Virus genome (UHGV): UHGV-1774420
Length of the DNA: 15,169 nucleotides
Origin: a virus
Strand: one strand, 5' to 3'
A program made the translations under genes and the position numbers. Under the pieces are notes generated by a model. The model was not told the DNA's origin. It ran no database searches and worked only from the letters and a program-made list of their open reading frames with translations. Shown one piece after another: positions 2 through 15,169 of the stretch; the stretch's first letter is position 1; the number at the start of each line of letters is the position of its first letter.

Positions 2-391
2 AGTGACCTTGTGCCTTCGGTTCCTGCCACCAGCATCATCCAGGATAAGGCGAAAAAGGTGCTGGCGCTGAAAGTGGATCCGGAGTCGCCGGAGTCTTTT
101 ATGTTACGCCCAAAACGTCGCCGCTGGGTTAATGAAAAGTACACGCGCTGGGTTAAGACACAGCCGTGTGCATGTTGTGGAAAGCCCGCTGATGATCCCC
201 ACCACCTGATAGGTTACGGTCAGGGTGGAATGGGAACAAAAGCGCATGACCTTTTTGTGTTGCCTTTGTGCAGAAAGCATCACGACGAGCTGCATGCGGA
301 TACCGTGGCATTTGAAGAAAAGTATGGCTCCCAGCTGGAGCTGATATTTCGTTTTATCGATCGCGCGCTGGCAATTGGCGTGCTGGCCTGA
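2..391 (+). CDS. nin-region zinc-finger protein, DUF968/YbcO-like C-terminal domain; 5' end probably outside the window
   Basis: ORF is open to the window start (no in-frame stop in codons 2-10; first start-like codon is GTG at 11). Cys/His motif PCACCGKPADDPHHL...GTKAHD...CRKHHDELH resembles, from memory, the YbcO/YdfU-type domain of lambdoid nin regions. About 60% GC, like the phage backbone. Sits immediately upstream of Q. Confidence 0.5.
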   Translation, partial: SDLVPSVPATSIIQDKAKKVLALKVDPESPESFMLRPKRRRWVNEKYTRWVKTQPCACCGKPADDPHHLIGYGQGGMGTKAHDLFVLPLCRKHHDELHADTVAFEEKYGSQLELIFRFIDRALAIGVLA

Positions 392-409
392 TTTTTTCGG
401 AGAAAGGTG

Positions 410-772
410 ATGCGTGATATTCAGATGGTTCTGGATCGTTGGGGAGCATGGGCGGCGAGTGATAGTTCAGGAGTAGATTATTCTCCTATAGCTGCTGGGT
501 TTAAAGGGCTTCTTCCCTATACAAGCAAAACACGTCAGGCTTGTTCAGATAGTGATGCATTAATTATTGAAGGTTGTCTTGCACGTCTAAAGCAAAAAAG
601 ACCTGATGAGCATTCGCTTCTTGTGGCACATTATTTATACAGAATATCCAAGCGTAAGATTGCAAAGGCGCGTGGAAAGGATGAGAAACTAATACGCATT
701 GAGATACAGATGGCTGAGGGGTTTATTGATGGATGCCTTTCAATTCTGGATGTTAAACTTGAAATGGATTAG
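410..772 (+). CDS. Q: late-gene antiterminator Q (Phage_antitermQ family, DLP12 QuuD-like)
   Basis: Translation MRDIQMVLDRWGAWAA...GFKGLL...ARLK...AEGFIDGCLSILDVKLEMD closely matches my recollection of E. coli DLP12 QuuD (MRDIQMVLERWGAWAANN...). GGAG at 399-402 lies 7 nt before ATG 410; GTG at 407 is an alternative start. AT-rich (about 33-42% GC). Position before the lysis cassette fits Q. Confidence 0.8.
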   Translation: MRDIQMVLDRWGAWAASDSSGVDYSPIAAGFKGLLPYTSKTRQACSDSDALIIEGCLARLKQKRPDEHSLLVAHYLYRISKRKIAKARGKDEKLIRIEIQMAEGFIDGCLSILDVKLEMD

Positions 773-1840: not shown

Positions 1841-1901
1841 CTTACGCGGTCCGCAAAAATAATTGTATCATGTTAAGAGTGGTTACTTCGACTCCTTCCT
1901 T

Positions 1902-1927
1902 AAAACCGCAGTTGAGCGGTTTTTTTG
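1902..1927 (+). terminator. rho-independent terminator, candidate tR-prime
   Basis: Stem AACCGC (1904-1909) / GCGGTT (1916-1921), loop AGTTGA, then a T-run at 1920-1926. Lies downstream of the candidate late promoter and upstream of the first plus-strand late ORFs, as expected for a Q-dependent terminator. Confidence 0.6.
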
Positions 1928-2048
1928 TACCTGTAAACCTGGTGCAGTACAGTAAACACGCTGGTGGTCGTGAATACTGGCTTTTTATCTTGCTGGCTTT
2001 TTAGACAAGAGTTATTGGTATGTCATGTTAACCAGAAGGGAAAAAGAC

Positions 2049-2252
2049 ATGCTAAAACAGCAAGATATGACAGAAACCGCCGCCGTAGTCCTTCATTTCC
2101 TACCTGCTGACAAGTGGGTAACGCCACGCATGATGACGAGAACTACCGGAGTAAGCGAAGCCCGGTGCCAGTTAATACTGACTCAGTTAGTTCTGGCGGG
2201 TCTGGCGAAGGATAACGGCGGGTACGGGAATAAATTCAGACGCTGCCAGTAA
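2049..2252 (+). CDS. small winged-helix DNA-binding protein (FaeA-like), putative regulator
   Basis: 67 aa from ATG 2049, with AAGGGA RBS 7 nt upstream (the longer ORF from 2025 has no RBS). Segment TRTTGVSEARCQLILTQLVLAGLAKD resembles the recognition helix and wing of small FaeA-like regulators. Backbone-like GC content. Confidence 0.45.
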   Translation: MLKQQDMTETAAVVLHFLPADKWVTPRMMTRTTGVSEARCQLILTQLVLAGLAKDNGGYGNKFRRCQ

Positions 2253-2402
2253 TGGCGGTTTCCTGCTGTGAAAATGGGCGGCTGGTGGGTGTTGGTAGCA
2301 CCTGCCAGCCATTCGCTCATGCTTACTGGTCACAAGCGAACCACGGCCCACTGCTTTAGCGCAAAAGCAGAGTGAGCCTACCAGAGTTACGCTTACTGAT
2401 CC

Positions 2403-3455
2403 ATGAAAAATACTGTAAAAATAAACAGTGTTGATTTAATCAACGCTGATTGCCTGCATTTTATTCAGTCCCTGCCTGATGATTCCATTGACCTGATTGT
2501 TACCGATCCGCCGTACTTCAAGGTGAAACCCAACGGCTGGGACAATCAGTGGAAAGGGGACGAAGATTACCTTAAGTGGCTGGACCACTGTCTGGCCCAG
2601 TTCTGGCGGGTGTTAAAACCTGCCGGAAGCCTTTACCTGTTCTGTGGGCATCGCCTGGCATCTGATATTGAGATCATGATGCGTGAACGTTTCAACGTGC
2701 TTAACCATATCATCTGGGCGAAGCCGTCCGGACGTTGGAATGGGTGTAATAAAGAAAGTCTGCGTGCATATTTTCCTGCCACAGAGCGCGTTCTGTTTGC
2801 TGAACATTACCAGGGGCCATATCGCGGCAAAAGTGACGGCTATGCGGCAAAAGAAAGGGAACTCAAACAGCACATAATGGCACCGCTGATATCGTATTTC
2901 AGGGATGCTCGTGCCGAACTGGGTATAACGGCAAAACAAATTGCCGAAGCCACAGGTAAGAAAAATATGGTTTCCCACTGGTTTGGTGCCAGTCAGTGGC
3001 AGTTGCCGAATGAGGCTGACTATCGGAAGTTACAGGCACTGTTTTCCCGTATAGCGGCAGAGAAGTTTCAGGAACAACAACTGGAACAACCACACCACCA
3101 GCTGGTGGCGTCTTATGATTCACTGAATCGCAAATATTCTGAATTGCTGGATGAGTTTAAATCTCTCCGGCGCTATTTCTCCGTATCAGTCTCCGTGCCT
3201 TATACCGATGTCTGGATGCATAAACCCGTTCAGTTCTACCCGGGTAAACATCCGTGTGAGAAACCGGCGGATATGCTCAGGCAAATAATCAATGCCAGTA
3301 GTCGACCTGGTGATCTGGTTGCTGATTTTTTTATGGGATCCGGTTCCACAATAAAAGCAGCAATGGCGCTGGGGCGTCGGGCCTTAGGTGTTGAGCTTGA
3401 GTCAGAGCGGTTTAACCAGACAGTGAAAGAGATAAACGAGCTGGTGGGGAAATAA
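2403..3455 (+). CDS. orphan N6-adenine (N6/N4 family) DNA methyltransferase, beta-class motif order
   Basis: DPPY catalytic motif near the N-terminus (LIVTDPPYF). AdoMet-binding FxGxG motif near the C-terminus ([13 protein letters not shown]). Central insert carries an HTH-like segment ([19 protein letters not shown]). No restriction endonuclease partner is seen nearby. Confidence 0.9.
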
Positions 3456-3461
3456 TCTGGT

Positions 3462-3487
3462 GGCCACGTCAGGTGGCCTTTTTATTT
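3462..3487 (+). terminator. hairpin plus T-tract after the methyltransferase gene
   Basis: GGCCAC (3462-3467) / GTGGCC (3473-3478), 5-nt loop, followed by TTTTTATTT. Placed between the methyltransferase stop (3455) and the holin start. Confidence 0.5.
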
Positions 3488-3522
3488 CCATTACACAGCA
3501 CCCGCATCTGCGAGGTGGGGTT

Positions 3523-3738
3523 ATGAAATCCATGGATAAGTTAACAACGGGTGTCGCCTATGGCACCTCAGCAGGTAGCGCCGGGTACTGGTTTTTACAG
3601 TTGCTCGATAAAGTCACGCCCTCACAGTGGGCGGCAATAGGTGTGCTGGGTAGTCTGGTATTTGGCCTGCTGACGTACCTGACAAACCTTTATTTCAAGA
3701 TTAAAGAAGATAAGCGCAAGGCTGCGAGAGGTGAATAA
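3523..3738 (+). CDS. S: class II holin (pinholin), phage 21 S21-like, dual-start motif
   Basis: [71 protein letters not shown] is near-identical to my recollection of S21 ([29 protein letters not shown]...). Met1 and Met4 give the antiholin/holin dual start. GAGGTGGGG RBS upstream. Confidence 0.9.
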
Positions 3739-4235
3739 TGCCTCCATCATTACGAAAAGCAGTTGCTGCTGCTATTGGTGGCGGAGCAATTGCTATAGCA
3801 TCAGTGTTAATCACTGGCCCAAGTGGTGACGATGGCCTGGAAGGTGTCAGCTACATACCATACAAAGATATCGTTGGCGTATGGACTGTATGTCACGGAC
3901 ACACCGGAAAAGACATCATGCTCGGTAAAACGTATACCGAAGCAGAATGCAAAGCCCTCCTGAATAAAGACCTTGCCACGGTTGCCAGACAAATTAACCC
4001 GTACATCAAAGTCGATATACCGGAAACAACGCGCGGCGCTCTGTACTCGTTCGTCTACAACGTGGGTGCTGGCAATTTCAGAACATCGACGCTTCTTCGC
4101 AAAATAAACCAGGGCGATATCAAAGGCGCATGTGACCAGCTACGTCGCTGGATATACGCTGGCGGTAAGCAATGGAAAGGCCTGATGACTCGTCGTGAGA
4201 TTGAGCGTGAAGTCTGTTTGTGGGGGCAACAATGA
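3738..4235 (+). CDS. R: SAR endolysin (T4-lysozyme-type muramidase, R21-like)
   Basis: N-terminal Gly/Ala-rich signal-anchor-release segment ([20 protein letters not shown]), then a lysozyme domain (Glu-Asp-Thr catalytic region, YIPYKD...[10 protein letters not shown]). Start overlaps the holin stop. Confidence 0.92.
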
Positions 4236-4699
4236 GCAGAGTAACCGCGATTATCTCCGCTCTGGTTATCTGCATCATCGTCTGCCTGTCGTGGGCGGTC
4301 AATCATTACCGTGATAACGCCATCGCCTACAAAGAACAGCGAGATAAAAAAGTCAGTGAGCTGAAGCAGGCGACCGCCACCATTACTGACATGCAGCAGC
4401 GCCAGCGTTCTGCTGATGCACTCGATGCTAAATACACGAAGGAGTTAGCTGATGCGAAAGCTGAAAATGATGCTCTTCGGCGCAAGCTTGATAATGGTGG
4501 TCGGGTGTTCGTCAAAGGAAAATGCCCTGTGCCATCCTCAGCCGAAACCTCCAGCGCCTCCGGCATGGGCAATGATGCCACCGTCGAACTCTCTCCAGTT
4601 GCTGGACGAAACGTTCTCGGTATCCGGGACGGAATTATCCGCGACCAAACAGCACTGAGAACGCTTCAGGAATACATCAGGACGCAATGCCTTCGATGA
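4232..4699 (+). CDS. Rz: i-spanin Rz
   Basis: N-terminus [31 protein letters not shown]... matches lambda Rz as recalled. ATG 4232 overlaps the endolysin stop (ATGA). Transmembrane anchor plus coiled-coil periplasmic domain. Confidence 0.9.
4452..4658 (+). CDS. Rz1: o-spanin Rz1, embedded in the +1 frame of Rz
   Basis: Lipobox LIMVVGCSS followed by the proline-rich stretch [11 protein letters not shown]. Fully nested inside Rz in a different frame, as in lambda Rz/Rz1. Confidence 0.8.
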
Positions 4700-4872
4700 T
4701 AGCGATAATTTTACTCATCATCCTTCACATCTGGCTCTGTAGACAGGATGGTGATCACTTCTGGAGTGAATCCAGATTAAACATCTCATTGCTGATGCTT
4801 GATATTGAGCATCTTGCGCGCGGTAAGGGGCTGCGTTGAGATAAGAGCCAGTCATTACAAATACCAGGATTT

Positions 4873-4899
4873 AGCCTCGCATTCGCGGGGCTTTTTATT
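4873..4899 (+). terminator. rho-independent terminator downstream of the lysis cassette
   Basis: AGCCTCGC (4873-4880) / GCGGGGCT (4885-4892) stem with one G-U pair, loop ATTC, then TTTTTATT. Confidence 0.5.
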
Positions 4900-4943
4900 G
4901 CCATTACAAAAGCCACTCCCTACAGAGTGGCTTTTGTAATGGC
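4900..4943. repeat. perfect 19-bp inverted repeat (long hairpin or protein-binding palindrome)
   Basis: GCCATTACAAAAGCCACTC (4900-4918), 6-nt spacer CCTACA, GAGTGGCTTTTGTAATGGC (4925-4943). The 9-mer CATTACAAA also occurs at 4853-4861. No flanking T-tract on either strand. Confidence 0.6.
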
Positions 4944-4980
4944 TTATACCCTACACGGGATAGCTTAACTGATATCCCTT

Positions 4981-5157
4981 TTAACGGATAAAGGTCTTCA
5001 AGCCTGACACATCATGCGCTGTATCGTCGCCGTATTCCCGTATTAACAGAGACCGTAGCCCGACGGGGAACTCCTTCTGCGCGAGTGTGCGGGAATAATC
5101 AAAAACGATGCACACCGGGTTTTTACCGCGTTTATGGTTCGCGGGTTTGTCCCTCAT
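4981..5157 (-). CDS. hypothetical small protein (about 58 aa from ATG 5157; ORF open back to GTG 5196)
   Basis: Minus-strand ORF with AGGA 9 nt upstream of ATG 5157. No recognisable family. Overlapped by plus-strand ORFs of similar length in a GC-rich patch, so coding status is doubtful. Confidence 0.2.
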   Translation of the reverse strand: MRDKPANHKRGKNPVCIVFDYSRTLAQKEFPVGLRSLLIREYGDDTAHDVSGLKTFIR

Positions 5158-5324
5158 GCTCGCCAGTCCTGTGCGGGGGTGGAAGAAACAGGACACTTAC
5201 ACAGATTCTTGTGGGCACGATGCTATGCCTTTCTGGATTATCCCGATGCCATTCATGCAAGGCGTTGTATCAGACGTTCGTCAGAGCTGTCAGGCTGACG
5301 GGTCCTCCCGGTGGGGTGGCCTGC

Positions 5325-5350
5325 CACGGGGCGGGAGCGTCGCGGAAAAA
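5325..5350. other. candidate cosN (cohesive-end nicking site) of the packaging origin
   Basis: GGGGCGGGAGCGTCGCGG resembles the lambda cosN core GGGCGGCGACCTCGCGGG as I recall it (about 13 of 17 aligned positions). It lies about 170 bp upstream of the terminase small subunit start, followed by an AT-rich stretch with direct repeats TCATCACCACTAA (5375-5387) and TCATCACTAACAC (5449-5461), which could be cosB-like sites. Confidence 0.4.
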
Positions 5351-5514
5351 GGCTAGTTTTTGAAATTTCATTCGTCATCACCACTAATGTAATGTATTGA
5401 TATTACAGTGGTTTTATTTTTATGGTGTCGATTTTGATTATTTTTTGTTCATCACTAACACCGTTTGCCTAAAGTTGTTCGCAAGATGCATGTTTAAAAC
5501 ATTCTGGAGCGGGT

Positions 5515-6009
5515 ATGGATCGAGAGTTAAAAAATCTGACGCTGAATATCAGTCAACTGGCGGCACTGTCAGGTGTACATCGCCAGACTGCTGCGGCAAG
5601 GCTGCAAAATCTACCCGTTGCAGGGGGGCATGAAAGCAACCTCAAGCTTTATCGGGTGGTTGATATTGTGTCGGCATTTCTGGCATTACCACCGCCGGTT
5701 GCAGAAGGCGAAATGGACGCGCATGAGCGCAAAGCCTGGTATCAGTCTGAACGTGAGCGTCTTAAGTTCGAACAGGAAACGGCACAACTCATTCCGGCCA
5801 GTGATGTCAGACGGGAGTTTGCCATCTGGGCAAAAGCGGTCGTGCAGGTGCTGGAGACATTACCGGATATTCTTGAACGTGACTGCGGTCTGCAGCCTGC
5901 CGCTGTGAGCCGTGTTCAGTCCATTATTGATGATCTGCGCGATCAGATAGCCCTGCGGGTGACTGAAGCAGGTGCGGATGATGAGGAGGAATTACAGCAG
6001 GAGGAGTAA
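5515..6009 (+). CDS. terminase small subunit (Nu1-like winged-HTH DNA-recognition protein)
   Basis: N-terminal HTH (LNISQLAALSGVHRQTAAARLQNL), acidic C-terminus. Stop overlaps the large-subunit start. GGAG RBS 5 nt upstream. Position and architecture parallel lambda Nu1. Confidence 0.75.
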   Translation: MDRELKNLTLNISQLAALSGVHRQTAAARLQNLPVAGGHESNLKLYRVVDIVSAFLALPPPVAEGEMDAHERKAWYQSERERLKFEQETAQLIPASDVRREFAIWAKAVVQVLETLPDILERDCGLQPAAVSRVQSIIDDLRDQIALRVTEAGADDEEELQQEE

Positions 6010-8111
6010 TGCTGAATCAGGAAACCGCAAAGGCAGCACGAACCGATTCAGGTTATATCCTTCGCGCACCGAGACGAATGCGGGTTGCTGATGCCGTTGC
6101 TCAGTATATGCGGGTGCCCATGGGGGCCGGGAACTCAGTCCCGTGGGATCCGCTGGTGGCACCGTATGTTATTGAGCCGATGAACTGCCTGGCCTCGCGT
6201 GAATACGACGCAGTGATATTTGTTGGCCCGGCACGAACCGGCAAGACTATCGGCCTGATTGACGGCTGGGTGATTTACAACGTGATTTGCGATCCTGCTG
6301 ATATGCTGATCATTCAGATGACGGAGGAAAAAGCCCGCGAACACTCCAAAAAACGACTCGCCAGAACGTTTCGCGTCAGCCCGGAAGTGGTCAGTCGCCT
6401 GAGTCCGAACAAAAATGACAACAACGTTTATGACAGAACATTCCTTGCTGGCAACTACCTGAAAATCGGCTGGCCGTCAGTCAATATCATGTCCTCATCA
6501 GATTATAAATGCGTCGCGCTGACGGATTATGACCGTTTTCCGGAAGATATTGATGGTGAGGGGGATGCCTTCTCTCTTGCCTCAAAACGTACCACCACAT
6601 TTATGTCCAGCGGTATGACGTTGGTGGAGAGTTCCCCCGGCAGGGATGTGAAGGATGTGAAATGGCGACGGACTTCACCGCATGAGGCTCCACCAACCAC
6701 GGGGATCCTGTCGCTCTATAACCGTGGTGATCGCCGTCGCTGGTACTGGCCCTGTCCACACTGTGGTGAGTATTTTCAGCCCTGCGGCGATGTGGTTGCT
6801 GGTTTCCGTGATATTGCCGATCCCGTGCTGGCAAGTGAGGCGGCTTATATTCAGTGTCCTTCCTGTTCAGGACGGATTATGCCTGAACACAAACGTGAGC
6901 TGAACGGACGTGGGGTCTGGTTGCGGGATGGTGAATCCATCAATGCGGATGGCAGTCGTTATGGTGATCCCCGACGCTCACGTATTGCGTCATTCTGGAT
7001 GGAGGGTCCGGCAGCTGCTTACCAGACACTCTCGCAACTCGTTTACAAACTGCTTACTGCAGAACAGGAATACGAGACAACCGGAAGTGAAGAAACACTC
7101 AAGACGGTTATCAATACCGACTGGGGATTACCTTATCTTCCCCGCGCCAGCATGGAGCAACGAAAAAGTGAACTGCTTGAGCAGCGGGCAGAGCCAGTTC
7201 CTTCCCGCAGTGTGCCGGATGGCGTTAATTTCCTTGTGGCGACAGTGGATGTGCAGGCGGGACGTCATCGCCGTTTTGTGGTTCAGGTAACGGGCTATGG
7301 CAGCCGTGGCGAACGCTGGATTATTGATCGTTACAACATCACGCAGTCATTGCGCGGTGACAGCGACGGGGAGAGCCAGCGAATTGATCCGGCCAGCTAT
7401 CCGGAAGACTGGGATGTCCTGCTGACGGATGTTTTTCATAAAAGCTGGCCGCTGGCCTCCGATCCTTCTCAACAAATGCGACTGATGGCAATGGCGGTGG
7501 ACTCCGGCGGTGAAGACGGGGTCACTGATAATGCCTATAAATTCTGGCGTCGTTGCCGTCGTGATGGCCTTGGTAAACGTATTTACCTGTTTAAGGGCGA
7601 CAGCATCCGGCGCGCAAAACTGATCACCCGTACATTCCCTGATAACACCGGACGAACGGGCCGACGGGCGCAGGCCGCAGGTGATGTGCCGCTCTGGCTT
7701 CTTCAGACGGATGCACTGAAAGACCGGGTGAATAACGCGTTATGGCGTGACTCGCCAGGTCCCGGCTATGTGCATTTCCCTGACTGGCTGGGGAGCTGGT
7801 TTTACGACGAACTGACGTATGAAGAGCGGAGCAGTGACGGGAAATGGAGTAAGCCGGGTCGCGGTGCCAACGAAGCTTTTGACCTGATGGTGTATGCCGA
7901 GGCTCTGGTCATTCTGCATGGATACGAAAAGATCCGCTGGCCGGATGCACCGGAGTGGGCGAGCCGGGAAACCTGGCTGGAGTGTGTCCAGGACAGTACC
8001 GAACCGTCATCCTCACCGGAACCGGTATCCACGCCTGTTAAAAAACAAAAACGGAAGAAAACAGTAACTGACGATGTTAACCCCTGGCTGACTTCCGGAG
8101 GATGGTTATGA
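6009..8111 (+). CDS. terminase large subunit (lambda gpA family)
   Basis: 700 aa. Walker A motif VGPARTGKT. Length and position match GpA-family terminases. GAGGAG RBS, with ATG overlapping the upstream stop. Confidence 0.92.
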   Translation: MLNQETAKAARTDSGYILRAPRRMRVADAVAQYMRVPMGAGNSVPWDPLVAPYVIEPMNCLASREYDAVIFVGPARTGKTIGLIDGWVIYNVICDPADMLIIQMTEEKAREHSKKRLARTFRVSPEVVSRLSPNKNDNNVYDRTFLAGNYLKIGWPSVNIMSSSDYKCVALTDYDRFPEDIDGEGDAFSLASKRTTTFMSSGMTLVESSPGRDVKDVKWRRTSPHEAPPTTGILSLYNRGDRRRWYWPCPHCGEYFQPCGDVVAGFRDIADPVLASEAAYIQCPSCSGRIMPEHKRELNGRGVWLRDGESINADGSRYGDPRRSRIASFWMEGPAAAYQTLSQLVYKLLTAEQEYETTGSEETLKTVINTDWGLPYLPRASMEQRKSELLEQRAEPVPSRSVPDGVNFLVATVDVQAGRHRRFVVQVTGYGSRGERWIIDRYNITQSLRGDSDGESQRIDPASYPEDWDVLLTDVFHKSWPLASDPSQQMRLMAMAVDSGGEDGVTDNAYKFWRRCRRDGLGKRIYLFKGDSIRRAKLITRTFPDNTGRTGRRAQAAGDVPLWLLQTDALKDRVNNALWRDSPGPGYVHFPDWLGSWFYDELTYEERSSDGKWSKPGRGANEAFDLMVYAEALVILHGYEKIRWPDAPEWASRETWLECVQDSTEPSSSPEPVSTPVKKQKRKKTVTDDVNPWLTSGGWL

Positions 8112-8320
8112 ACCAGAATGATATCGAAGCCATGATTCAGCGTTATATGGAAGCTGAAATGGCGGTGCTGGACGGAAAATCCGTCACCTTTAATGGTCAG
8201 CAGATGACCATGGAAAACTTATCTGAGATCCGGCAGGGACGGCAGGAGTGGGAGCGCCGCCTTGCGGCTCTGATTACACGACGACGGGGGCATCCCGGGT
8301 ACCGGCTGGCGAGGTTCTGA
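8108..8320 (+). CDS. W: gpW-like head-tail joining protein
   Basis: About 70 aa with C-terminus ...RRRGHPGYRLARF, resembling the lambda gpW C-terminus (...RRRGPAGFYV). ATG 8108 overlaps the terminase stop (ATGA); ATG 8102 is an alternative start. Confidence 0.7.
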   Translation: MNQNDIEAMIQRYMEAEMAVLDGKSVTFNGQQMTMENLSEIRQGRQEWERRLAALITRRRGHPGYRLARF

Positions 8321-9828
8321 TGGCAATTCTTGATGATGTGATTGGCGTTTTTTCACCTGGATGGAAAGCGGCAAGGCTGCGTTCCCGTGCGGTGATCCAG
8401 GCTTATGAAGCCGTAAAAACGACGCGGACACACAAAGCCCGACGGGAGAACCGAACTGCCGACCAGCTAAGCCAGTACGGGGCCGTGTCGTTACGTGAGC
8501 AGGCCCGTTACCTTGATAACAACCACGATCTGGTTATTGGTGTATTTGACAAGCTGGAAGAACGGGTGGTGGGGAAAAACGGGATTATTGTCGAGCCACA
8601 TCCGGTATTACGCAATGGGGCCATTGCCCGTGATCTGGCAGCGGAGATTCGCACCCGATGGAGTGAATGGTCTGTCAGCCCGGAAGTCACCGGGCAGTTT
8701 ACCCGTCCGATGCTGGAACGTCTGATGCTGCGTACCTGGCTGCGCGATGGTGAGGTGTTTGCCCAGATGGTTTCCGGGCGCATAAACAGCCTGACGCCTT
8801 CTGCCGGTGTTCATTTCTGGCTGGAGGCGCTCGAGCCAGACTTTATTCCCATGACCAGTGATGAGAGCAACAGGCTGAATCAGGGCGTGTTTGTTGATGA
8901 CTGGGGGCGTCCCGAAAAATATCTGGTGTATAAAAGCCGTCCCGTATCCGGACGGCAGATGGAAACCAAAGAAGTGGATGCAGAGCGAATGCTGCATCTT
9001 AAATTTGTTCGCCGTCTGCACCAGATGCGCGGGACGTCTTTGTTGTCCGGTGTGCTGATCCGCCTCAGTGCCCTGAAAGATTATGAAGATTATGAGCTGA
9101 CTGCAGCAAGGATCGCCGCTGCTCTGGGGATGTACATCCGCAAAGGCGACGGGCAGAGCTATGAACCGGATGGTAATGGCAGCAAGGATAAGGAACGCGA
9201 GCTTACCATTCAGCCAGGCATTATTTACGACGATCTGAAACCCGGCGAAGAAATCGGAATGGTGAAGTCGGATCGCCCCAATCCTAATCTTGAAACTTTT
9301 CGTAATGGTCAGTTGCGTGCAGTGGCGGCTGGCAGTCGTCTGAGTTTTTCCAGTACAGCGCGCAACTATAACGGCACTTACAGCGCCCAGCGTCAGGAGC
9401 TGGTTGAATCCACTGATGGCTACCTGATCCTGCAGGACTGGTTTATTGGTGCCGTCACCCGCCCGATGTACCGTGCCTGGCTGAAACAGGCTGTGGCATC
9501 CGGTGTTATCAGGCTACCCCGCGATCTTGACCGTTCTTCACTGTATACCGCGGTGTATTCCGGACCGGTGATGCCGTGGATTGACCCTGTTAAGGAGGCT
9601 GAGGCCTGGAAAATCCAGATTCGTGGTGGAGCGGCGACAGAATCAGACTGGGTACGTGCAGGTGGTCGTAATCCGGATGATGTCAAACGTCGGCGCAAGG
9701 CCGAAATTGATGAAAACCGCAAGCTGGATCTGGTATTTGATACCGATCCGGCCAGTGATAAAGGAGGCAGCAGTGCCGCAACGAAACGACAGGAGCCGCA
9801 GCACACCGATGACCAGTCCGAAGAATAA
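8320..9828 (+). CDS. B: portal protein (lambda gpB family)
   Basis: About 502 aa, directly downstream of terminase and W. ATG 8320 overlaps the W stop. The ORF track's upstream extension (from 8248) overlaps W and lacks an RBS. Confidence 0.88.
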   Translation: MAILDDVIGVFSPGWKAARLRSRAVIQAYEAVKTTRTHKARRENRTADQLSQYGAVSLREQARYLDNNHDLVIGVFDKLEERVVGKNGIIVEPHPVLRNGAIARDLAAEIRTRWSEWSVSPEVTGQFTRPMLERLMLRTWLRDGEVFAQMVSGRINSLTPSAGVHFWLEALEPDFIPMTSDESNRLNQGVFVDDWGRPEKYLVYKSRPVSGRQMETKEVDAERMLHLKFVRRLHQMRGTSLLSGVLIRLSALKDYEDYELTAARIAAALGMYIRKGDGQSYEPDGNGSKDKERELTIQPGIIYDDLKPGEEIGMVKSDRPNPNLETFRNGQLRAVAAGSRLSFSSTARNYNGTYSAQRQELVESTDGYLILQDWFIGAVTRPMYRAWLKQAVASGVIRLPRDLDRSSLYTAVYSGPVMPWIDPVKEAEAWKIQIRGGAATESDWVRAGGRNPDDVKRRRKAEIDENRKLDLVFDTDPASDKGGSSAATKRQEPQHTDDQSEE

Positions 9829-11800
9829 TTCCTGGTTCAGGATGCAGGCTGGTCACCAGAGTGACGCGGATATTTATATTTATGACGAGATTGGTTTCTG
9901 GGGTGTTACAGCGAAGCAGTTTATCAGTGATCTGAATGCACTGGGCGATATCACCCACATTAATCTCCATATCAATTCACCGGGTGGCGATGTCTTTGAA
10001 GGCATCGCCATTTTTAATGCGCTGAAAACACATGGTGCGTCCATTACCGTTTATGTCGACGGTGTGGCGGCGTCAATGGCGTCGGTCATTGCGATGGTGG
10101 GAAAACCGGTCATTATGCCGGAAAACACCTTCATGATGATTCATAAACCATTTGGCTTTACGGGCGGTGATGCGGAGGACATGCGCACCTATGCCGACCT
10201 GCTCGATAAGGTTGAGGCGGTTCTGTTACCCGCTTATGCACAGAAAACCGGGAAAACCACCGATGAAATTGCTGCCATGCTGGCGGATGAGACCTGGATG
10301 TCCGGTGCCGAATGTCTGGCACATGGATTTGCTGATCAGGTGACGCCAGCCGTTAAGGCAATGGCATGTATTCAGTCAAAACGTACAGAGGAATTTAAAA
10401 AGATGCCGGAATCCATTCGAAACATGATTACTCCGCCACGCAACAGTGCTCCACGCGTACAGGATAATGAACCTGCAGCCTCCCGGACGCCAGTGCAGGC
10501 AGCAGCACCCGTGGTGGATGAAAACAGTATCCGTGCGCAGGTACTGGCAGAGCAAAAAGCGCGTGTAAACGGTATTAATGATCTGTTTGCCATGTTTGGC
10601 GGGCGTTATCAGACGCTGCAGGCTCAGTGTCTTGCCGATCCTGAATGTTCGCTGGAGCAGGCCCGCGAAAAGCTGTTGAACGAGATGGGGCGCGAGTCCA
10701 CGCCATCCAATAAAAATACCCCGGCTCATATTTATGCCGGTAACGGTAATTTTGTGGGGGACGGGATCCGCCAGGCGCTGATGGCGCGTGCCGGATTTGA
10801 AAAAACCGAACGTGATAATGTCTACAACGGGATGACCCTGCGTGAATATGCCCGTATGTCACTGACTGAACGGGGTATTGGGGTTTCCGGTTATAACCCG
10901 ATGCAGATGGTCGGTGCGGCGTTCACACACAGTACGTCTGACTTCGGTAATATTCTGCTGGATGTTGCGAACAAAGCCATTCTGCAGGGCTGGGAGGATG
11001 CCCCTGAAACCTATGAAAAGTGGACGCGGAAAGGTCAGTTGTCTGATTTTAAAATTGCCCATCGCGTGGGTATGGGGGGCTTCAGTGCTCTGCGTCAGGT
11101 GCGTGAAGGGGCGGAATATAAATACGTCACCACCGGAGATAAACAGGCCACTATTGCACTGGCGACCTATGGCGAGCTGTTCAGTATCACCCGTCAGGCC
11201 ATTATCAATGATGATCTGAATATGCTGACCGATGTCCCGATGAAGCTGGGCCGTGCGGCGAAATCCACTATTGCCGATCTGGTTTATGCCATTCTGACGT
11301 CTAACCCGAAAATCTCCACAGATAATGTAAGTCTGTTCGATAAAGCGAAACATGCAAACGTACTGGAGGACGCTGCAATGGACGTGGCATCGCTGGATAA
11401 AGCCCGCCAGTTGATGCGTGTTCAGAAAGAGGGGGAGCGTCATCTGAATATTCGTCCTGCGTTCGTACTGGTACCGACGGCGATGGAGTCTGTTGCTAAC
11501 CAGGTCATTCGCTCCTCAAGTGTCAAGGGGGCTGACATTAACGCCGGTATTATTAACCCGGTGAAAGATTTTGCGACCGTTATTGCAGAGCCTCGTCTTG
11601 ATGATAACAGCCAGACCACCTTCTACCTGGCTGCGTCAAAAGGCTCCGATACGATTGAAGTGGCTTATCTCAACGGTGTGGATACGCCATATATTGATCA
11701 GATGGAGGGCTTCAGTGTGGATGGCGTGACAACGAAAGTGCGTATTGACGCCGGTGTCGCGCCAGTTGATCACCGCGGTCTGGTGAAATGTACGGCGTAA
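9809..11800 (+). CDS. head maturation protease (ClpP/S14-like) - scaffold - major capsid protein fusion polyprotein
   Basis: N-terminal ClpP-like region (IYIYDEIGFWGV...INSPGGDVFEGIAIFNAL...GVAASMASVIAMVG...MMIHKP), a central low-complexity Ala/Gln-rich linker, and a C-terminal capsid-like domain of about 300 aa. AGGAG at 9791-9795 lies 13 nt before ATG 9809; ATG 9842 is an alternative start. The same single-ORF arrangement is known from Gifsy-2-like heads. Confidence 0.85.
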   Translation: MTSPKNNSWFRMQAGHQSDADIYIYDEIGFWGVTAKQFISDLNALGDITHINLHINSPGGDVFEGIAIFNALKTHGASITVYVDGVAASMASVIAMVGKPVIMPENTFMMIHKPFGFTGGDAEDMRTYADLLDKVEAVLLPAYAQKTGKTTDEIAAMLADETWMSGAECLAHGFADQVTPAVKAMACIQSKRTEEFKKMPESIRNMITPPRNSAPRVQDNEPAASRTPVQAAAPVVDENSIRAQVLAEQKARVNGINDLFAMFGGRYQTLQAQCLADPECSLEQAREKLLNEMGRESTPSNKNTPAHIYAGNGNFVGDGIRQALMARAGFEKTERDNVYNGMTLREYARMSLTERGIGVSGYNPMQMVGAAFTHSTSDFGNILLDVANKAILQGWEDAPETYEKWTRKGQLSDFKIAHRVGMGGFSALRQVREGAEYKYVTTGDKQATIALATYGELFSITRQAIINDDLNMLTDVPMKLGRAAKSTIADLVYAILTSNPKISTDNVSLFDKAKHANVLEDAAMDVASLDKARQLMRVQKEGERHLNIRPAFVLVPTAMESVANQVIRSSSVKGADINAGIINPVKDFATVIAEPRLDDNSQTTFYLAASKGSDTIEVAYLNGVDTPYIDQMEGFSVDGVTTKVRIDAGVAPVDHRGLVKCTA

Positions 11801-11886
11801 ACATCGCAGACAACAACTCTGATGGCCCGTAAGGGCTTTTTTTGTACCTGAAATCAGCCCCTGAACGGGGCTGTGTGGAGACAGTT

Positions 11887-12210
11887 ATGGCAAAGAATTT
11901 TGTAGAAGAAGGAAAAACGGTGGCGATTGTTGCCAGTGCAGCCATCAGCAGCGGAGATCTGGTGCAGGTGGGTGATGTTTTTGCGGTGGCGCTGACCGAT
12001 ATTCCACAAGGTGAAACAGGCGACGGTATGACCGAAGGTGTGTTTATGCTGCCTAAGCTGAAAACGGATGACATGAAAACGGGTAAGAAGGTTTATCTGA
12101 AGTCCGGAAAAGTTCAGTTGACTAACAGCGGCTCTGATCCGCTGGTCGGGGTTGTCTGGGCAGATGCCGGAACCAGTGCAGAAGAAGTGCCGGTAAAACT
12201 CAATGTCTGA
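11887..12210 (+). CDS. DUF2190-like small head protein (putative capsid decoration/cement protein)
   Basis: 107 aa, MAKNFVEEGKTVAIVASAAISSGDLVQVGDVFAVALTDIP..., Gly/Val-rich beta-type sequence directly after the capsid gene. Start has a GGAGACAG RBS. Confidence 0.55.
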   Translation: MAKNFVEEGKTVAIVASAAISSGDLVQVGDVFAVALTDIPQGETGDGMTEGVFMLPKLKTDDMKTGKKVYLKSGKVQLTNSGSDPLVGVVWADAGTSAEEVPVKLNV

Positions 12211-12478
12211 TCCCTTTTCCCGGCTGGCAGCGCGTATGGATGCTATCACGGTCAGAAAGATGGGAAAGACAGCCTCGATTAATGATGTCGATATGACCGT
12301 GATCCCGGGAGAAACACTGGCAGAGCTGAATGCTCTGTCCGGACCTGCGGTCTCTCTGGTGGTGTTTTCTTCGGGATACCGCCCACGGCGCGGGGATCGC
12401 GTTGTTTATGACGGACAACAATGGACGGTCACACGGCATGAACGCTTTAACGGTAAGCCAATGATCTTTATTGAGTAA
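12203..12478 (+). CDS. FII: head-tail joining protein, lambda gpFII-like
   Basis: MSDPFSRLAARMDAITVRKMGKTASI... and ...RRGDRVVYDGQQWTV parallel lambda FII (MADFDNLFDAAIARADETIRGYMGTSATI... RRGDTLTIGEENFWV) as recalled. Start overlaps the upstream stop. Confidence 0.65.
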   Translation: MSDPFSRLAARMDAITVRKMGKTASINDVDMTVIPGETLAELNALSGPAVSLVVFSSGYRPRRGDRVVYDGQQWTVTRHERFNGKPMIFIE

Positions 12479-12489
12479 AGAGGTGTGGG

Positions 12490-13068
12490 ATGAAGGGGCT
12501 TGAGAATGCCATCCGCAATCTGAACAGCCTTGATACCCGTATGGTGCCACAGGCCAGCGCATGGGCGATAAACCGTGTGGCACAGAAAGCGGTCTCGGTT
12601 GCCACCCGGCAGGTTGCCGGGAATACCGTTGCGGGAGATAACCAGGTGAAAGGGATCCCCCTGAAACTGGTACGTCAGCGTGTCCGGGTGTTTAAAGCCA
12701 GTCCGTCAGGAAAAATGACGGCCAGGATCCGCGTTAACCGGGGCAATCTGCCCGCCATTAAGCTGGGGACAGCCCGGGTCAGACTGGCCCGGCGTGGTGG
12801 AAAACTGCAGTACCGTGGCAGCGTGCTGAAGGTGGGTAAATATCTTTTCCGGGATGCGTTTATTCAGCAACTGGCGAATGGTCGCTGGCATGTGATGCGG
12901 CGTATTGATGGCAAAAATCGTTACCCCATTGATGTGGTGAAAATCCCGCTGTCCGGACCGCTGACACAGGCATTTGAAGATGCCCGCGATCGCATCATTG
13001 CTGCGGAAATGCCGAAACAGCTGGGGTATGCACTGAAACAACAACTGAGGTTATGGCTGACCCGATGA
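12490..13068 (+). CDS. Z: tail completion protein, lambda gpZ homologue
   Basis: 192 aa, the same length as lambda Z. Shared blocks include KGLE.A..NL, AINRVA, IKLG.ARV, FIQQL.NGRWHVM.R..GKNRYPIDVVKIP and LGYAL..QLR. Confidence 0.9.
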   Translation: MKGLENAIRNLNSLDTRMVPQASAWAINRVAQKAVSVATRQVAGNTVAGDNQVKGIPLKLVRQRVRVFKASPSGKMTARIRVNRGNLPAIKLGTARVRLARRGGKLQYRGSVLKVGKYLFRDAFIQQLANGRWHVMRRIDGKNRYPIDVVKIPLSGPLTQAFEDARDRIIAAEMPKQLGYALKQQLRLWLTR

Positions 13069-13466
13069 ACCGACATACACAAATCCGCCAGGCCGTACTG
13101 GCACGCCTTCGGGAACAGTGTGGAGACAGCGCCACATTTTTTGACGGGCTTCCGGCATTTATTGATGCGCAGGAACTGCCTGCCGTGGCGGTGTGGCTGA
13201 GTGATGCTCAGTACACCGGAAAAATGACGGATGAAGATGACTGGCAGGCTGTTCTGCATATTGCCGTCTTCATCCGGGCACAGGCACCGGATTCAGAGCT
13301 GGATATGTGGATGGAGAGCACCATTTTCCCGGCCCTGAATGATGTACCGGCACTTTCCGGACTCATCGACACCCTGATCCCACTCGGTTTTAACTATCAA
13401 CGTGATAATGAGATGGCCACCTGGGCGATGGCGGAAATCACGTACCAGATCACGTACACGAATTAA
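13065..13466 (+). CDS. U: tail terminator protein, lambda gpU homologue
   Basis: Shared blocks with lambda U: ATFFDG.PA, FPAVAV.L..A.YTG, W.A.LHI.VF..AQ.PDSELD.WMES.I.P, LTY.ITY. ATG 13065 overlaps the Z stop (ATGA); ATG 13053 is an alternative start. Confidence 0.9.
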   Translation: MNRHTQIRQAVLARLREQCGDSATFFDGLPAFIDAQELPAVAVWLSDAQYTGKMTDEDDWQAVLHIAVFIRAQAPDSELDMWMESTIFPALNDVPALSGLIDTLIPLGFNYQRDNEMATWAMAEITYQITYTN

Positions 13467-13476
13467 GGAGGTGGCA

Positions 13477-14220
13477 ATGACCACACCAAATCCACTGGCA
13501 AAAACGAAAGGTGCGGGAACGACGTTCTGGATGTACACCGGCAAGGGCGATGCGTTTGCGAACCCTTTATCGGACACTGACTGGCTGCGTCTTGCGATGG
13601 TGAAGGATCTGCAGCCTGGCGAAATGACCGCTGATGCAGAAGATGACACTTATCTCGATGATGAAGATGCAGACTGGAAAACGACAACCCAGGGGCAGAA
13701 ATCCGTCGGTGATACTTCGGCGACGCTGGCCTGGCGTCCGGGTGACAGCGGGCAGAAAAAACTGGTTCAGTTGTTCGACTCCGGTGAAGTCTGCGCGTTT
13801 CGTATCAAATATCCCAACGGTACTGTTGATGTTTTCCGTGGCTGGCTGAGTTCACTGGGTAAAACCATTGCCTCAAAAGACGTGATGACCCGCACAGTGA
13901 AAATCAGCGGTGTGGGGCGTCCGTATCTGGCAGAAGAAGGCACTGAAACCGTGGGCGTTACCGGGCTGACGGTGGCACCGGCATCTGCCAGTGTAAAAGT
14001 GGGAGCAACCACCACGCTGACCTTTACAGTAAAACCTGACGGAGCCAGTGACAAAGCGATCAGTGTGCATTCGACAGATCCACAGACTGCCACGGTGACC
14101 CTGAACGGGCTTGTGGCCACGGTGAAAGGCGTGAAGCAGGGCAGTGTCAGCATTGTGGGCATGACTTCTGACGGCGATTTTGTGGCAGTGGCTACGGTGG
14201 CCGTCAGCGCCGCAGGTTAA
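13477..14220 (+). CDS. V: major tail protein, lambda gpV homologue, with C-terminal Ig-like (Big_2) domain
   Basis: MTTPNPLAKTKGAGTTFWMYTGKGDAFANPLSD...YLDDEDADW...NGTVDVFRGW... tracks lambda V ([33 protein letters not shown]...). AAGGAGG RBS 5 nt upstream. 247 aa. Confidence 0.92.
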   Translation: MTTPNPLAKTKGAGTTFWMYTGKGDAFANPLSDTDWLRLAMVKDLQPGEMTADAEDDTYLDDEDADWKTTTQGQKSVGDTSATLAWRPGDSGQKKLVQLFDSGEVCAFRIKYPNGTVDVFRGWLSSLGKTIASKDVMTRTVKISGVGRPYLAEEGTETVGVTGLTVAPASASVKVGATTTLTFTVKPDGASDKAISVHSTDPQTATVTLNGLVATVKGVKQGSVSIVGMTSDGDFVAVATVAVSAAG

Positions 14221-14247
14221 CAGGACGATAAGTGGAGCATATCGGTA

Positions 14248-14577
14248 ATGGAGACGTTTCACTGGAAAGTGCGCCCGGATATGAATGTGGTATCAGAGCC
14301 GAAAGTGGTGACAGTGAAGCTGGGCGATGGTTATGAACAGCGTCGTGCGGCGGGACTGAATAACCAGTTGTCGACTTACAGCGTGACGATACGTGTTCGT
14401 AAATGTGAACACCCATCTTTGAAAGCCTTTCTGGAACGGCACGGTGGCGTCCGCGCATTTCAGTGGACGCCACCTTATGACTGGAAGCCGATCAGGGTGG
14501 TTTGTCGTAAATGGTCGGCAAGCGTGGGGGCGCTGTGGGTAACCATAACGGCAGATTTTGAACAGGTCGTGGCATAG
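14248..14577 (+). CDS. M: tail tip protein, lambda gpM homologue
   Basis: 109 aa, the same length as lambda M. Shared blocks W.KV.P.M.V.S.P.V..V..GDGY.QR..AGLN..L.TYSV, HGG...F.WTPPY.W..I.V.C.KWS and FEQVV. Confidence 0.9.
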   Translation: METFHWKVRPDMNVVSEPKVVTVKLGDGYEQRRAAGLNNQLSTYSVTIRVRKCEHPSLKAFLERHGGVRAFQWTPPYDWKPIRVVCRKWSASVGALWVTITADFEQVVA

Positions 14578-14586
14578 GAGGCCCTG

Positions 14587-15169
14587 ATGCAGGATATTCC
14601 ACAGGAAACACATCATGAGACGACACGCCTTACTCAGTCAGCCCAGGTGGTGCTCTGGGAAATCGATCTGACAGAGGTCGGTGGTGAACGTTATTTTTTC
14701 TGTAATGAGCAGAACGAAAAAGGTGAGCCGGTCACCTGGCAGGGGCGGCAGTATCAGGCATACCCCATTCAGGGGACGGGATTTGAACTGAACGGTAAGG
14801 GCAGTGCTGCCCGTCCGACACTGACGGTCTCTAACCTGCACGGCATGGTCACCGGGATGGCGGAAGACCTGCAGAGTCTGGTCGGCGGAACGGTGGTCAG
14901 GCGTAAGGTTTACGCCCGTTTTCTGGATGTGGTGAACTTCGTCAACGGAAACAGCGACGCCGATCCGGAGCAGGAGGTGATCAGCCGCTGGCGCATCGAG
15001 CAGTGTAGCGAACTGAGTGCGGTCAGTGCCTCCTTTGTGCTCTCCACACCGACGGAAACGGATGGTGCTGTTTTTCCGGGGCGCATCATGCTGGCCAACA
15101 CCTGCACCTGGACCTATCGCGGTGATGAGTGCGGTTATAGCGGTCCGGCGGTCGCGGATGAATATGACC
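14587..15169 (+). CDS. L: tail tip protein, lambda gpL homologue (3' end outside the window)
   Basis: MQDIPQETHHETTRLTQSAQVVLWEIDLTEVGGERYFFCNEQNEKGEPVTWQGRQYQAYPIQG... is near-identical to lambda L as I recall it. AGGAGG RBS at 14575-14580. The ORF runs off the window end. Confidence 0.92.
   Translation, partial: MQDIPQETHHETTRLTQSAQVVLWEIDLTEVGGERYFFCNEQNEKGEPVTWQGRQYQAYPIQGTGFELNGKGSAARPTLTVSNLHGMVTGMAEDLQSLVGGTVVRRKVYARFLDVVNFVNGNSDADPEQEVISRWRIEQCSELSAVSASFVLSTPTETDGAVFPGRIMLANTCTWTYRGDECGYSGPAVADEYD

Follow-up and report, generated by a model that had tools for sequence, protein, structure and literature searches.

In lambda-like siphoviruses the tape measure protein is kept in solution by gpG/gpGT and nucleates at the tip complex, where it becomes surrounded by polymerising V. 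Lambda mutants with amber or deletion lesions in H, G or T are expected to form filled heads and no functional tails. Siphovirus tail assembly depends on both the tape measure and the gpG/gpGT chaperones, and siphovirus mutants without the chaperones yield capsids lacking tails (PMC4493119). Among the defective prophages of O157 Sakai, complementation by virion proteins from co-resident lambdoid prophages has been inferred (PMC2669165), and the DNA-filled tail-less capsids of capsid-forming PICIs (cf-PICIs) take the tails of another phage (10.1101/2025.02.11.637232). The sequence analysed here is a stretch of 15,169 nt from UHGV virus genome UHGV-1774420, referred to below as the window. It has the same gene order as mEp460, cdtI and related E. 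coli prophages (EC13, 120899, GCA_050196175.1), and its identity to relatives of the mEp460/cdtI type is 98-99.96% for lysis, terminase, portal, ClpP-capsid fusion, cement, Z, U, V, M and L. These relatives carry a terminator behind V, followed by G, T and an H of 1018-1024 aa, whereas the window is without these 3,785-3,803 nt. We consider it probable that the window belongs to an mEp460/cdtI-type lambdoid prophage in which one recent, spontaneous, non-homologous deletion of approx. 3.8 kb took place, leaving an element that is non-infectious alone and that a co-resident lambdoid prophage could rescue.

Pfam assignments identified the window as the late region of a lambdoid prophage with the order Q, cargo gene, methyltransferase, lysis, terminase, portal, protease-capsid fusion and lambda-like tail genes (Table 1). 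None of its 17 genes deviates in length from the annotation of intact relatives, in agreement with an earlier note on this DNA, according to which the head, terminase and lysis genes look intact. Neither tRNA genes nor Rfam families were found in the window. The lambda-like tail module (Z-U-V-G-G/T-H-M-L-K-I-J) is represented by Z, U, V, M and L, while G, G-T and H are missing. The window stops inside L at position 15169, and K, I, J and the side tail fibre genes fall beyond it.

Table 1. Coordinates of genes and junction features in the 15,169-nt window.
Feature	Position	Strand	Basis
DUF968, 3' part	11-391		Pfam
Antiterminator Q	407-772		Pfam
NYN-domain gene, 291 aa	785-1660	minus	Pfam NYN 1.4e-09
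N6/N4 DNA methyltransferase, 350 aa	2403-3455		Pfam
Holin, lysozyme, Rz	3523-4699		Pfam
Small terminase, DUF1441	5515-6009		Pfam
Large terminase (TerL)	6009-8111		Pfam
Portal	8248-9828		Pfam
ClpP-like protease/major capsid fusion, 675 aa	9773-11800		Pfam CLP_protease + Phage_capsid_4
Cement protein	11887-12210		Pfam
Gifsy-2/FII-like head-tail protein	12203-12478		Pfam
gpZ-like tail completion protein, intact, 192 aa	12490-13068	+	Minor_tail_Z 9.7e-77, 1-190/190; same length in relatives
gpU-like tail terminator, intact, 137 aa	13053-13466	+	Phage_tail_U 6e-61, 1-130/130
gpV-like major tail tube protein with C-terminal Ig-like domain, intact, 247 aa	13477-14220	+	Phage_TTP_12 1.5e-66, 1-135/135, + Big_2
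V-G spacer remnant, first 10 nt (CAGGACGATA)	14221-14230	+	Alignments to relatives
Deletion junction, 2-bp TA	14229-14230	.	blastn coordinates, in-silico removal
H 3' remnant: 2 nt of the preceding codon, last 5 codons (SGAYR), stop	14229-14248	+	Alignment to H 3' ends of mEp460, EC13 and strain 120899
gpM-like tail-tip protein, intact, 109 aa	14248-14577	+	Phage_min_tail 1e-39, 1-108/108
gpL-like tail-tip protein, first 194 codons, open to window end	14587-15169	+	Phage_tail_L 8.2e-81, 1-167/206

Between V, whose stop codon TAA occupies positions 14218-14220, and the first base of M lie 27 nt (14221-14247) without an open reading frame. The Shine-Dalgarno sequence of M is a GGAG at 14234-14237, 10 nt 5' of the ATG. 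The V and M gene calls, which had been made from the letters alone, were borne out by the Pfam matches, and their coordinates proved exact. The observation that M has its own ribosome binding site and that no space for a gene is left behind V was confirmed as well. Searching the whole window by tblastn with the G, T and H proteins of a close relative returned chance matches only (E at least 0.39), confirming that these genes are absent after V. The tail assembly chaperones G and G-T (Phage_TAC_2, Phage_tail_T) gave E values of at least 0.62, and the tape measure H (TMP_2, TMP_4, Tape_meas_lam_C) a best E value of 0.39; of H, the last five codons (14231-14245) are retained in the window.

Every relative retrieved displayed the order V, terminator hairpin, G, T, H, M, L. 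The relatives in which G-T-H was found comprise phage mEp460, E. coli 120899 and EC13, and 30 listed contigs with an identical V, TerL or U protein. Their V and M genes are separated by a G of 128-129 aa (Phage_TAC_2), a T of approx. 109 aa (Phage_tail_T) and the H of 1018-1024 aa, a length that replaces the approx. 850 aa previously assumed for the tape measure. The exact V protein is widespread, with 5,828 blocks, and G-T-H always followed downstream among the matches listed. The exact U protein is rarer; it occurred in 30 collection blocks, again with G-T-H downstream at all matches listed.

Alignment to these intact relatives demonstrated that a block of tail genes was deleted. Positions 1871-14230 of the window aligned with the intact EC13 prophage over 12,360 nt without a single gap and at 99.08% identity, after which the alignment skipped 3,785 nt. 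The late region is collinear with mEp460 and the relatives L004 and L031 at 98.5-99.96% nucleotide identity, and positions 14229-14600 are 100% identical to many E. coli prophages. The missing DNA amounts to 3,785 nt in comparison with L004, L031 and EC13 and to 3,803 nt in comparison with the H allele of L005, so that the proposed loss of DNA was correct, while its size had been underestimated at about 3 kb. When the corresponding 3,785 nt (6755-10539) were removed from L004 in silico, the product matched window positions 14181-14300 with no mismatch in 120 nt. An alignment of the V-M junction against intact relatives, which the earlier note had proposed, therefore fixed both endpoints to within 2 bp.

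According to the blastn coordinates, the two parental sequences share the TA at the junction. The left parent reads GGT TAA CAGGACGATA up to the breakpoint and CTCATCATTTGCCCCG beyond it, the right parent reads GGTGGTCGGT before and TAAGTGGAGCATATCGGTAATGGAG after the breakpoint, and the window reads GGTTAACAGGACGATAAGTGGAGCATATCGGTAATGGAG across the junction. The left endpoint is located 10 nt past the V stop codon and the right endpoint 19 nt ahead of the M start codon. Of the 60-nt V-G spacer, 50 nt are gone, among them the hairpin GCCCCGATTATCCGGGGC-TTTTTT, and G, T and all of H but its last five codons were lost as well. In L004 this hairpin begins 10 nt past the breakpoint, and the mEp460 annotation lists it as a rho-independent terminator; no terminator-like site was found in the window between 14220 and 14248. 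In the relatives, H ends in GGRLSGAYR followed by the stop codon, the Shine-Dalgarno sequence of M sits inside the H 3' end, and the H stop codon TAA overlaps the M start codon as TAATG. The V stop codon, the M Shine-Dalgarno sequence and the TAATG overlap were all spared by the deletion, and alignments to relatives revealed no foreign or scar bases in the 27-nt spacer.

These endpoints would be accounted for by a non-homologous deletion that joined the spacer behind V to the 3' end of H at the 2-bp TA overlap. Such an event would have removed the V terminator hairpin, G and its frameshift extension T, and H minus its last five codons. Repeat-mediated or site-specific excision was considered and rejected, because the in-register overlap comprises only 2 bp and no flanking repeats were found. 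The longest word common to both breakpoints within 30 nt on either side is 6 nt (GGTTAA), and it is not the crossover point. Since an overlap of at least 2 bp is expected by chance in approx. 16% of random joins, the TA does not tell slippage, end-joining and design apart.

Design deserves consideration, as the endpoints are unusually tidy: both adjoining genes and the M ribosome binding site are spared, which a random deletion manages only occasionally. A careful designer would likewise have cut within the 60-nt V-G spacer and 19 nt before M, keeping the V stop codon and the GGAG, and a junction that occurs in no natural genome searched would also fit a deliberate, scarless removal of G-T-H, in the laboratory or by sequence editing, which disabled the tails and left the adjoining genes expressed. 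We regard such engineering as quite improbable, since the junction displays no scar, cassette, restriction site or foreign base, the left endpoint is an arbitrary position 10 nt into the spacer, and the window bears no sign of a laboratory strain. Moreover, positions 12118 and 14930, one on either side of the junction, differ from every relative compared, and these private SNPs look like ordinary natural divergence.

The flanks of the junction also bear on the question of whether the sequence was assembled correctly. Over the 2,231 nt on the left of the junction, the closest relatives deviate from the window at one or two bases. L005 has two mismatches in these 2,231 nt and four in the 941 nt on the right, i.e. 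approx. 99.8% identity on both flanks, indicating that one parental prophage accounts for both. A chimera of two prophages was rejected on these grounds. It is conceivable that the true genome contains G-T-H and that V was wrongly joined to M, either through a chimeric read or because co-resident lambdoid prophages collapsed in the assembly. Several lambdoid tail modules of nearly identical sequence are often found in one E. coli, a situation that confuses assemblers; L010 and L011 are two such modules within one genome. An artefact would also be in line with a junction unique among all collections searched. We nevertheless judge an artefact unlikely. The breakpoints share only the TA in register, with the 6-nt word as the longest nearby, and without a repeat a graph-based collapse has no substrate. 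The consensus around the junction is clean, and the 12,360 nt aligned without gaps are matched by a finished genome. Error-prone drafts of relatives (L027-L034) show scattered frameshift-split genes and no clean multi-kb loss, and the fit of L005 to both flanks makes a two-prophage chimera unnecessary.

The junction was not present in any of 5,426 complete E. coli genomes. A junction probe matched 1,866 of them at 3,941 places, and at none of these places were the V end and the M start 850 nt or less apart. Of the genomes, 506 contained 80% or more of the window; in the best 25 of these 506, the matched span includes an annotated tape-measure gene. The V-M arrangement did not occur in 50,697 phage records, and the 29-nt junction string was absent from IMG/VR, GTDB-representative and JGI metagenome contigs. 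Relaxing the pattern to 20 nt yielded five matches in marine, Flavobacteriaceae and Bathyarchaeota contigs. They share a 20-21-mer with the window and none of its flanks, and were dismissed as chance matches rather than true copies of the junction. As far as the collections searched can show, the lesion is private to this sequence, and the junction, resting on one sequence, is a single observation.

The earlier note had proposed that the prophage may persist as a domesticated element, a role with which its NYN cargo gene would fit. A long-standing prophage remnant retained by the host for such cargo would indeed combine an NYN-domain gene with missing essential tail genes. A cryptic prophage would be expected to show a shared lesion accompanied by further decay; the lesion was shared by none of the 5,426 complete genomes, and no other indel or truncated gene was detected in the window. 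With no copy in the viral, genome and metagenome collections, not one indel in 12.4 kb compared with an intact prophage and all genes at full length, the proposal of a domesticated element was not sustained, and we consider this reading hardly credible. The NYN gene itself fills a cargo slot between Q and the late genes. In relatives, the same slot is occupied by a DNA methylase together with an AAA ATPase, by a porin, by a lipocalin or by genes of no given function. As variable cargo after Q is normal in intact relatives, the NYN gene is uninformative on domestication. The NYN version is present in only 27 of the 5,426 complete E. coli genomes. Its segment is 100% identical in CREC-629 and CREC-532, and in CREC-629 it is joined to a different, true-lambda structural module that retains G, T and H, which shows that the prophage is a mosaic. 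Because of this different module, the CREC-629 prophage was rejected as the parent and is regarded as a mosaic relative.

Ungapped flanks with 99.1% identity to an intact prophage, full-length genes and a unique junction point to a recent, private deletion event rather than long-term retention. What we describe is an isolated case of ordinary prophage decay. Events of this sort are well known, the E. coli prophage affected is of a common type, and no new kind of element is involved. It provides a clean natural case in which one illegitimate deletion disables an otherwise perfect prophage, with little import beyond annotation. Completeness tools that count head, terminase, lysis and 'tail' matches would probably call the prophage intact; despite its nearly complete look, it should be scored as tail-defective.

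The consequences of the deletion for particle formation can be predicted from established lambda and siphovirus assembly, according to which the element would be unable to build tails on its own. Without H and G/GT there would be no tail initiator, and V would be unable to polymerise to a defined tail length. In the absence of an initiator, the induced prophage should bring about cell lysis and set free heads that are filled with DNA but have no tails. Losing only the tape measure should block tail formation as well. Loss of the V terminator and of the coupling to H translation may, speculatively, alter the expression of M and L. The corresponding H, G and T mutants of lambda are laboratory mutants, whereas here a natural relative lost all three genes at once, and its phenotype is a predicted one. 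A lambdoid prophage in the same cell, provided that its module is compatible, could contribute G/GT/H or complete tails, or could repair the lesion by recombination. The expectation in the earlier note that the prophage is probably defective for infectious particles is therefore sound as far as tail assembly is concerned (PMC4493119), but it needs the qualification that the element is defective alone, as co-resident prophages can complement (PMC2669165). If obtainable, the strain would be a ready-made G-T-H null for studying in-trans rescue among co-resident lambdoid prophages.

In this respect the element resembles the Sp prophages of O157 Sakai (PMC2669165): it has a morphogenetic deletion, should respond to induction by releasing particulate DNA, and would be open to complementation by, or recombination with, co-resident prophages. 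In contrast to the Sakai prophages, most of which have several defects (frameshifts, IS insertions, deletions), it exhibits one clean lesion within the 15 kb seen. Like cf-PICIs (10.1101/2025.02.11.637232), the element would make its own filled tail-less capsids that need foreign tails. cf-PICIs, however, are small satellites without tail genes that have evolved helper dependence, whereas the element is a prophage of full size that retains Z, U, V, M and L and whose lesion is accidental. Membership in the cf-PICIs was rejected, as these tail genes accompany the head and packaging genes. An F-type tailocin, which has tail genes including a tape measure and lacks head and packaging genes, was rejected as well, because terminase, portal and capsid are present and the tape measure is absent.

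Helper dependence might nevertheless have been selected for, with the prophage providing its own heads, packaging, lysis and tail tube and tip, and a co-resident prophage contributing G/GT/H or finished tails. A clean deletion that keeps the downstream tail genes translatable and leaves all other genes intact would suit such a variant, complementation has been documented within lambdoid prophage pools (PMC2669165), and tail-less DNA-filled capsids that gain foreign tails are the transfer route of cf-PICIs (10.1101/2025.02.11.637232). The lesion was found once and no lineage carries it, no signature of selection or compensating changes was observed, and the near-identity to intact prophages leaves too little time for selection. 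Rescue would accordingly be incidental rather than evolved, and we hold a selected variant to be very unlikely. There is an equally slight chance that the tidy loss of G, G-T and H is an early step towards a helper-dependent lambdoid element, a transition from phage to satellite caught in the act.

Several minor observations were made in the window and its relatives. In EC13 (L014), the annotation of the prophage end, past the tail fibre genes, includes a 'TIR domain-containing anti-phage reverse transcriptase' (41024-42628); the counterpart of this region in the present element falls beyond the window. TerL, portal, Z, K and J are split in the drafts L027, L029, L030 and L032-L034 (GCA_0165868xx / BNF*, BNG*), which looks like an indel-type consensus error. 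The methyltransferase gene is positioned directly upstream of the holin gene in the late transcription unit, an arrangement conserved in most relatives. The approx. 675 nt between the lysis cassette and the small terminase (4840-5514) contain no convincing gene, and in relatives a 58-aa minus-strand ORF is called there; this stretch is presumably the cos region. The protease-capsid fusion carries the same annotation in the RefSeq entries of relatives. Just after the capsid gene, a terminator-like hairpin followed by a T-run (GGCCCGTAAGGGCT-TTTTTTT) is located at 11824-11837. It is analogous to the lost hairpin behind V, and by following the two structural genes of highest abundance, such hairpins may determine how strongly parts of the late operon are expressed relative to one another.
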